Below, piece after piece: positions 89 through 163 of a stretch of 4,423 nucleotides of DNA (within the stretch, counting starts at the first letter, position 1; each line of letters starts with the position of its first letter). A program made the position numbers and the translations under genes. The stretch lies in the IMG/VR virus record IMGVR_UViG_2693429642_000019; one strand, written 5' to 3'. The notes under the pieces are model-generated. The model did not search any database. It was not told the DNA's origin and was given only the letters and a program-made list of their open reading frames with translations. Origin of the DNA: a virus (Monodnaviria > Loebvirae > Hofneiviricota > Faserviricetes > Tubulavirales).

Positions 89-163
89 TGCATTTGTGCA
101 CAATTGCACTTGTGCATCTGGTTTTTTTGTGTATTATTTTTGCAAGTTTGCACAATTGCACGC
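89..163. repeat. Array of TGCA tetranucleotides at 8-bp phasing, in two clusters (89-116 and 141-160), including a 13-bp direct repeat TGCACAATTGCAC at 98-110 and 150-162
   Basis: Read directly: TGCA at 89, 97, 105, 113 and again at 141, 149, 157, each 8 bp apart. The spacers are TTTG/CAAT/CTTG and AGTT/CAAT. The two clusters flank a -10-like TATTAT and sit immediately upstream of the rep start. Candidate operator or origin iterons. Confidence 0.55.
110..137 (+). promoter_or_regulatory. Putative sigma70-type promoter for the replication gene (-35 TTGTGC at 110-115, 16-bp spacer, -10 TATTAT at 132-137)
   Basis: Hexamers read by eye with 4/6 and 5/6 matches to consensus and 16-bp spacing. Located between the two TGCA clusters and about 50 bp upstream of the likely rep start. 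No experimental support. Confidence 0.3.

Follow-up and report, generated by a model that had tools for sequence, protein, structure and literature searches.

What reads an evenly phased array of TGCA tetranucleotides that lies upstream of the replication gene of a filamentous phage? The question is raised by IMG/VR virus record IMGVR_UViG_2693429642_000019 (Monodnaviria; Loebvirae; Hofneiviricota; Faserviricetes; Tubulavirales), a stretch of 4,423 nucleotides (here called the window) that is the left portion of a filamentous (inovirus) prophage; the array occupies positions 89-163, between the left edge and rep, the gene for a replication endonuclease. A sequence-only reading had proposed that the array is an iterated protein-binding site around a promoter, serving as an autoregulatory operator for Rep, as a repressor site controlling lysogeny-like carriage, or as origin iterons. 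Our analysis reveals that the array is inherited with a small, divergently transcribed gene and not with rep, and most probably it is the two-part operator of the product of that gene, a ParG-like ribbon-helix-helix (RHH) immunity repressor of the RstR functional class that would occlude the rep promoter.

The regularity of the array is evident from a simple count of positions. Exact TGCA boxes stand at 89, 97, 105 and 113 in a left cluster and at 141, 149 and 157 in a right cluster, in steps of exactly 8 bp, and the right cluster is shifted by 4 bp from the phase of the left, with 28 bp from 113 to 141; the four-plus-three arrangement described from the sequence thus holds, as do the 13-bp repeat in each cluster (TGCACAATTGCAC, found only at 97 and 149) and the TATTAT that the clusters bracket, at 132-137. 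The expectation that such phasing would rarely arise by chance was likewise borne out. The 4423-bp window contains 24 TGCA tetranucleotides, on average 0.40 in every 75-bp span, and no span exceeds the 7 of the array site; none of 200,000 mononucleotide shuffles of 89-163 gave seven TGCA or an 8-bp chain of three or more. In the intergenic region the strongest 4-mer autocorrelation is at lags 8 and 16, with 13 matches each (z=10.1 for lag 8), and Tandem Repeats Finder reports a 16-bp period repeated 2.2 times at 82-116. A motif search through the rest of the element, which the sequence-only reading had proposed, found no further phased TGCA pairs in a 14.2-kb interval that takes in the entire prophage together with flanking DNA.

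Position 73 is the probable start of the left cluster, which would then span 73-116 (unstranded): at 73-76, 16 bp before the first exact box, the window reads TACA where each of the four related copies (E. coli 100416, UTAK-18 and two IMG/VR contigs) reads TGCA, and AGCA at 81-84 is in phase with the cluster. The TACA is possibly an operator-weakening point mutation of this copy. The right cluster spans 141-160 and is likewise unstranded. The spacers (TTTG, CAAT, CTTG, AGTT, CAAT) are A+T at 14 of 20 positions (~70%), and the array has the layout of a ParG-type operator, that is, 4-bp cores separated by regular, mostly A+T spacers of 4 bp. Comparison with a variant of the module at 89.6% identity, represented by four E. 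coli genomes and one viral contig, gives seven substitutions over 89-161, of which none falls in the 28 core positions (P=0.034), four lie in inter-box spacers and three just past the last left box; the run of T residues and the TATTAT are invariant in all five aligned copies.

A minus-strand gene that starts at ATG 39, absent from the sequence-only account, places the array in a divergent intergenic region. Only its first 13 codons (MSRKSIGISNERY; 1-39, minus strand) are in the window, which the gene exits at the left edge, and a Shine-Dalgarno sequence read from the letters, GGAGAA (47-52, minus strand), stands 7 nt before the ATG. The complete gene is found at 5851-6039(-) of a chromosomal locus of E. 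coli strain 100416 (locus L001) that is 99.6% identical to bases 1-2200; it is annotated there as a 'hypothetical protein' and encodes a 62-aa RstR-like putative RHH repressor, whose DNA-reading beta-strand the first 13 codons putatively encode. In the window and in all related loci examined, the small gene is divergent from rep and shares an intergenic promoter region with it.

Rep would be the natural candidate for the protein that binds the boxes, as origin iterons or as a feedback operator, since the array directly precedes rep and initiators typically bind at short repeats in series. A Rep-binding site should, however, track Rep, and the array does not. The rep gene is present in 40 complete E. 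coli genomes, in 39 of which 80% or more of the query is covered, for the most part with an identity of ~98%; bases 1-186 are matched in only three of these genomes, and the other 36, with a Rep ~98% identical, carry unrelated DNA to the left of a break at 177-193, the rep ribosome-binding site. What stands upstream of rep instead is a different 62-aa gene with different repeats, or an IS110-type gene, so that the small gene and the intergenic region have been swapped together as a cassette against a nearly constant rep. Homologs of the small protein at 75-90% identity (Photorhabdus, Providencia, Sodalis and metagenomes) are always divergent from rep, and two clusters of 8-bp-phased TGCA are kept in all of them, although the neighbouring replication gene changes: it is of the Phage_GPA family here and of the unrelated Rep_trans family in Photorhabdus and Sodalis, and more distant family members, from sister subfamilies, adjoin Phage_CRI (Ff gII-type) genes. 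Because rep stays constant where the array is swapped, and because the array is found beside three Rep families, both Rep iterons and Rep autoregulation are contradicted, and we regard them as extremely unlikely. Of the sequence-only proposals, then, the iterated binding site bracketing a promoter and its repressor role in lysogeny-like carriage stand, and the two roles that involve Rep do not. Conservation of the array, which had been put forward as a check, depends on which gene is followed: it is lost in most elements with a homologous rep and kept wherever the divergent small gene is conserved.

Several of the exchanged cassettes deserve description in their own right. In E. coli 10035776-3 (locus L003, 4683-5009), window positions 1-186 are replaced by a segment encoding a different divergent 62-aa protein, phrog_5219; this cassette (H4-type) carries its own CTTAGAA/CTAAGAA repeats at 8/16-bp phase, and hhalign of the phrog_5219-type protein against the window family gave 0.6%, with no detectable homology. 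Its N-terminus, MPTKHINDVL, resembles the translated rstR-calc primer, MATKHIKDST, which is only a lead; tblastn with the H4-type protein reached no CTX-calc record. In E. coli AF34 (locus L002, 5027-5995), a gene for an IS110-family 'RNA-guided transposase' lies on the rep strand and stops 2 nt short of the rep start; this element lies near fiu/ybiX and not hipBA, and has no divergent repressor gene. The immunity cassette also occurs at 99.1% identity, together with a replication endonuclease, in Citrobacter youngae (OV141394.1, 87548-87894), a 363-kb record typed as a conjugative plasmid in which the cassette is found at two places.

The similarity break also bears on where rep begins. The sequence-only reading suspected that the open reading frame (ORF) start at TTG 88 lies upstream of the true start, and several lines of evidence agree that rep starts at GTG 187 and that TTG 88 is not used: the Prokaryotic Genome Annotation Pipeline (PGAP) places the start at the GTG 187 position, similarity among rep-bearing genomes sets in at 177-193, and the G+C content rises from 0.38 in 88-186 to 0.54 in rep. 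A Shine-Dalgarno sequence, GGGGGG (177-182, plus strand; read from the sequence and kept in relatives), sits 4 nt before GTG 187. The alternative, in which the repeats are simply coding sequence for 33 N-terminal codons of a Rep begun at TTG 88, has in its favor a frame that is unbroken from 88 into rep. In the closest relative with the same module, the 89.6% variant, the rep ATG aligns exactly with GTG 187 and the frame is closed by a stop six codons upstream; with the annotated start, the ribosome-binding site and the compositional shift, this leaves the coding explanation a vanishingly small probability. Gene callers over-extend in the same way on the other strand: two metagenomic homologs of the small protein (P0026 and P0033) carry 29-38 spurious N-terminal residues, and rstR in CTXphi/pre-CTX records (loci L017/L018, 2414-2674) is annotated at 86 aa, with homology and a start with a good ribosome-binding site 22 codons later. 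ORF callers thus routinely over-extend both of the genes that flank such arrays.

If the small protein reads the array, its sequence should be informative. It matches phrog_2503, and in tblastn 82-92% of its length aligns at 43-45% identity (E~4e-8) with rstR of GQ466608, GQ466611, KR063268 and GU942563; the homology is to the small 'environmental' allele, which is the one that the comparison covered. Beyond the close homologs named above, the relatives gathered by tblastn and by pattern scans of deposited phages, species-representative genomes and IMG/VR include Pasteurellaceae prophages and Dulem viruses at 53-62% identity, the Vibrio phages CTXphi, pre-CTX and VAI at 43-45%, in which the gene is annotated rstR or RstR-like, and Haemophilus parainfluenzae inoviruses at 42%, among others. 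Hundreds of contigs from E. coli and other enterobacteria carry the protein under the label 'hypothetical'; the automatic UniRef name of an identical protein, 'Relaxosome protein TraY' (another RHH protein), is consistent with an RHH assignment and was not counted as evidence.

An AlphaFold2 model of the monomer (predicted local distance difference test score 82) has extended residues 1-9 followed by helices at 10-27 and 33-61, and this beta-alpha-alpha order is that of RHH proteins. Within the N-terminal strand, hydrophobic residues are retained at positions 6 and 8 and variation falls at 5, 7 and 9; this strand is the least conserved structured segment, with a mean identity of 35% versus 51% for helix B. 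An hmmsearch against the PDB returned ParG (1p94) as top match (E=0.029), and hhalign of the family profile with ParG 1p94 gave 87.7% (E=3.4e-6) over 40 columns that take in the strand and both helices, the ParG query sequence having been verified as identical to 1p94 at 76 of 76 positions; the controls, lambda Cro and omega, gave 0.09% and 0.6%. We consider the profile similarity to ParG moderate, not conclusive. The PF09274 ParG model matched one of 17 family members (E=0.024), a match unlikely to reach the curated cut-off; a PDB profile search with a shallow alignment returned nothing useful, and fold searches with the tiny monomer model gave non-specific matches.

The strongest connection between protein and DNA comes from the way the boxes change among relatives. 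Across ~9 subfamilies the intergenic region retains two clusters of 4-bp boxes in 8-bp phase with the promoter between the clusters, a distance of 28-32 bp from last left box to first right box, a cTTG in the left cluster and, between the clusters, a T-rich segment that resembles a -10; the core of the box varies with the N-terminal strand of the small protein. Strand RKSIGIS goes with TGCA (a phased pair in 11 of 12 distinct loci, and no other box), RKNLGVP with TCAC/GTGA (8 of 8, and no TGCA), RTTYNV with CTCA/TGAG (8 of 10), KDTSVR and GDTTVR with GCAT/ATGC (7 of 7), and RKAIAIT and RKHIAVT with TTAA(C) (3 of 3). Tabulated against box, the strand classes (about 9, from 45 distinct loci) form a diagonal matrix; the relationship is correlative, and the strand classes are clades, amounting to roughly nine independent events. 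Such covariation is difficult to account for without supposing that the N-terminal strand of the small protein is what reads the boxes.

It is this covariation that separates the phage-encoded repressor from a host regulator, such as a SlyA/RovA-type protein, as the occupant of the boxes. A precedent for host control exists in YpfPhi, where RovA is reported to bind the promoter region of YPO2274 (rep) and to repress phage genes (PMC4266046). The consensus sequences of SlyA, LexA, IHF, CRP and Fur were not found in bases 1-200 at the mismatch levels tried, and a host factor leaves unexplained why the box changes with the N-terminal strand of a phage protein, both within and between host genera. 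We consider a host regulator an unlikely owner of the array; it could act alongside the phage repressor.

The placement of the boxes relative to candidate promoters is consistent with repression of rep. The best sigma-70-like match in the rep direction pairs a putative -35, TTGTGC (110-115, plus strand), which overlaps the last left box, with a putative -10, the TATTAT at 132-137 (plus strand), 16 nt past the -35 and preceded by seven T residues at 122-128. With the rep promoter placed at these hexamers, the left boxes would overlap the -35, and transcription, expected to start near 144, would begin within the right boxes. The TTG at the -35-equivalent position is kept in at least six other subfamilies, where the equivalent promoter placement is also the best; a sigma-70 scan at stock thresholds called no promoter in the intergenic region, and the rep-promoter hexamers are weak. 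For the small gene, a weak consensus match suggests a candidate promoter at 76-103 (minus strand), with a -35 of TTGTGC (103 to 98), a 16-nt spacer and a -10 of TATGTT (81 to 76), and an alternative candidate lies at 161-133; a small-gene promoter inside the left cluster would give autoregulation.

The same bases admit an explanation at the level of nucleic-acid structure, either a terminator that insulates rep or a single-stranded DNA hairpin that serves as a minus-strand origin or packaging signal. A terminator scan flags GTGCACAA-ttgcac-TTGTGCAT followed by the T run (96-128, plus strand), and an RNA hairpin at 88-130 has a folding energy of -12.5 kcal/mol (z=-2.0). This hairpin is marginal, being equalled in 8 of 200 shuffles, and palindromic boxes would give a hairpin in any case; the whole region as single-stranded DNA folds no better than its shuffles (z=+0.36), Rfam gives no match, and sister subfamilies have direct, non-palindromic boxes, e.g. 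TCACttgcTCAC and CTCAtgaaCTCA, that are unable to pair. We therefore think a structural role for the array very unlikely, and the 96-128 hairpin probably a by-product of palindromic boxes next to a T-rich promoter spacer, although it could block read-through from hipA into rep.

The mechanism that we infer for the immunity repressor, from binding and stoichiometry to promoter positions and physiological outcome, would be as follows. The 62-aa protein, an RHH repressor distantly akin to ParG as well as to some of the CTXphi RstR alleles, would dock one dimer on each TGCA and its 4-bp spacer through the N-terminal beta-ribbon, and dimers on adjacent boxes 8 bp apart would bind cooperatively through their helical scaffold. 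Bound at 73-116, the protein would cover the rep -35 and probably its own promoter, and bound at 141-160 it would cover the rep transcription start. An occupied operator is predicted to shut off rep and the downstream phage operon, to keep the dif-integrated prophage quiet, and to limit immunity to phages with the same module.

Two sets of observations weigh against this account. Against Pfam the window protein matched no family at E<=1, and no curated RHH family model was matched above threshold. Furthermore, the phased-tetramer layout is valid for the closer subfamilies and is not universal. The layout was predicted beforehand for four unexamined representatives with new strands, and P0038 (strand RKTYNV, CTCA-class-like, beside a Phage_CRI Rep) has CTCA boxes 8 bp apart as the prediction has it; P0062 (rstR6-like) and P0043 follow it in part, each with one 8-bp pair and a distal single box, and P0049 has three ~14-bp AACATGACGCAT repeats in place of phased tetramers. 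A homolog in Escherichia phage If1 is without the array altogether: an unannotated 63-aa ORF (MATPKRTTMAIVAERK...; NC_001954 ~5143-5310, minus strand; L020 2486-2677), 41% identical to the window repressor, falls within the annotated 'major intergenic region', and the If1 intergenic region upstream of it contains no box array. The DNA just upstream of the If1 ORF resembles, as judged by eye, the C-terminal part of an IS200/IS605 TnpA (...SYFAGSCGGAPLEVVRQYIQHQ).

The genetic arrangement is a familiar one. In CTXphi (RstR/ig-2, Vibrio cholerae) and, by prediction, in YpfPhi/CUS-1 (YPO2273), as in the window, a small repressor gene is divergent from the replication gene of a dif-integrating prophage; CTXphi shares in addition the intergenic region with the rep promoter and the swapping of the module as a unit among near-identical phages (PMC11509585). 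Module exchange of the CTXphi type gives allele-specific immunity, and lux reporters in E. coli show that repression by Vibrio RstR alleles is specific to the cognate ig-2 promoter; rstR6 (192 bp), for instance, lowers ig-2^6 from 2.18e5 to 1.94e4, or ~11-fold, in E. coli (PMC11509585). The YpfPhi gene at the repressor position is an RstR homolog whose role 'awaits experimental demonstration' (PMC4266046). From primer translations, rstR6 (AF452586) is a probable relative of the window family, since its primer-encoded ends, MKKKYTSLRV... and ...TQKTDLKR, resemble P0062 and a Vibrio homolog. The window differs from CTXphi RstR/ig-2 in having no LexA box in bases 1-200, and its 62-aa protein, which matches an RHH profile, differs from the RstR alleles ET, class, 232, ZJ and ZHJ, whose genes are 333-354 bp long. 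These well-studied alleles encode proteins of the helix-turn-helix type, and their operators are large and arranged in another way.

The closest parallel for the boxes themselves is ParG. Its OF operator consists of eight ACTC tetramer boxes with 4-bp AT-rich spacers, in direct or inverted order, and is coated cooperatively by one ParG dimer per box (PMC3130281). Zampini and Hayes found that the ribbons are portable specificity elements and that box spacing is set by the helical backbone (PMC3413123); the natural pattern described here, in which ribbon and box vary while helices and spacing are conserved, mirrors their engineered ribbon grafts. ParG of plasmid TP228 (OF/parH) shares with the window system the 4-bp cores and 4-bp spacers, the 8-bp period, the tolerance of degenerate boxes, whether direct or inverted, and the overlap of a multi-box array with a promoter, and the (A)CTCA boxes of one subfamily resemble the ACTC of ParG. 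There are differences as well: ParG serves in plasmid partition together with its partner ParF and has a flexible tail at its N-terminus, whereas the window protein has neither tail nor partner ATPase and stands in a phage immunity position; the window array is split, with 4-6 and 3 boxes flanking the -10, whereas ParG arrays are one run of 8-12; and the sequence similarity of the two proteins is remote. MetJ (8-bp met-boxes) and omega of pSM19035 (7-bp heptads) are RHH repressors that likewise bind one dimer per repeat with cooperative neighbour contacts; they differ from the window system in that MetJ needs a co-repressor and omega has a 7-bp repeat, and omega has no detectable sequence relationship to the window family.

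The remainder of the window is that of a filamentous prophage. The rep gene (187-2187, plus strand) encodes a replication endonuclease of the Phage_GPA family (PF05840, 8e-49; phrog_91) and is followed by a weak G5P-like gene (2218-2643, from the gene and domain scan), small structural genes and a pIII-like gene with a Gly/Ser repeat. In the last of these, a 78-bp unit is repeated 3.5 times at 95% identity (3887-4216) and encodes a Gly/Ser linker (GGSGSGSGGSSGSGGSGSGSGGSSGS...); this repeat is likely to be length-variable among copies. A megablast of the whole window against deposited phages gave no match. In E. coli 100416 the element directly follows hipBA, a region that we take to be the dif neighbourhood, and zot-like and secretin genes come after. 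A dif-like junction, GGTGCGCATAATGTGACACGCGTTATGTTGAAA, adjoins hipA at L001 ~5507-5540; its ends resemble XerC/XerD arms in comparison with E. coli dif, and its central region is longer, as would be expected for an attL of a Xer-integrated phage. The E. coli 100416 element thus matches the dif-integrated filamentous lifestyle of CUS-1, YpfPhi and CTXphi (PMC4266046).

Between the dif-like junction and the immunity cassette lies an unannotated hydrophobic ORF of 56 aa (51 aa from its ATG; ...MQTTSDLILDLLIKHFVVGSITGMTIFSLITLVLPLVMTIH...; L001 5604-5774, minus strand), which is also present in L003 and is kept in both cassette types; the left recombination boundary of the cassette falls just past it. 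In related inoviruses the slot directly downstream of the small repressor gene holds varied cargo (L005 3790-4545; L014 2913-3692; L012 4964-end; L095 2309-2524), including a TIR-domain protein (CAP12-PCTIR_TIR), a DpnII/MboI-like protein, DUF4365 and RepB-RCR_reg, and this slot may be a hotspot for defence and accessory genes.

The logic of the switch is ordinary; the repressor family and its box code are undescribed. Our literature search found no paper that links rstR to RHH proteins, and the only mention of RHH in a filamentous phage was in the annotation of PMBT54. For the family as a whole, we give even chances to the proposal that these ~60-aa ParG-like RHH proteins (about 72 clusters at 50% identity) are the immunity repressors of many inoviruses in Enterobacterales, Pasteurellaceae and Vibrionaceae, a subset of CTXphi rstR alleles included, and that new immunity types arise through about three ribbon residues (5, 7 and 9) together with the box core, the scaffold fixing the 8-bp spacing. 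The analysis offers a function for a protein that databases label 'hypothetical'. It also maps the proposed operator behind the lysogeny switch in dif-integrated filamentous prophages like CUS-1/YpfPhi, for which the regulator has been described as uncharacterised (PMC4266046). If the proposal is true, the family would constitute a natural ribbon-swap series, and a residue-to-base recognition code for RHH proteins could be derived from it. The pairs of ribbon and box, which share one unchanging scaffold, could be of use in designing orthogonal small repressors. The analysis further suggests that CTXphi 'RstR' is not one family, some alleles being apparently ParG-like RHH proteins, which bears on how heteroimmunity has evolved among the cholera-toxin phages.

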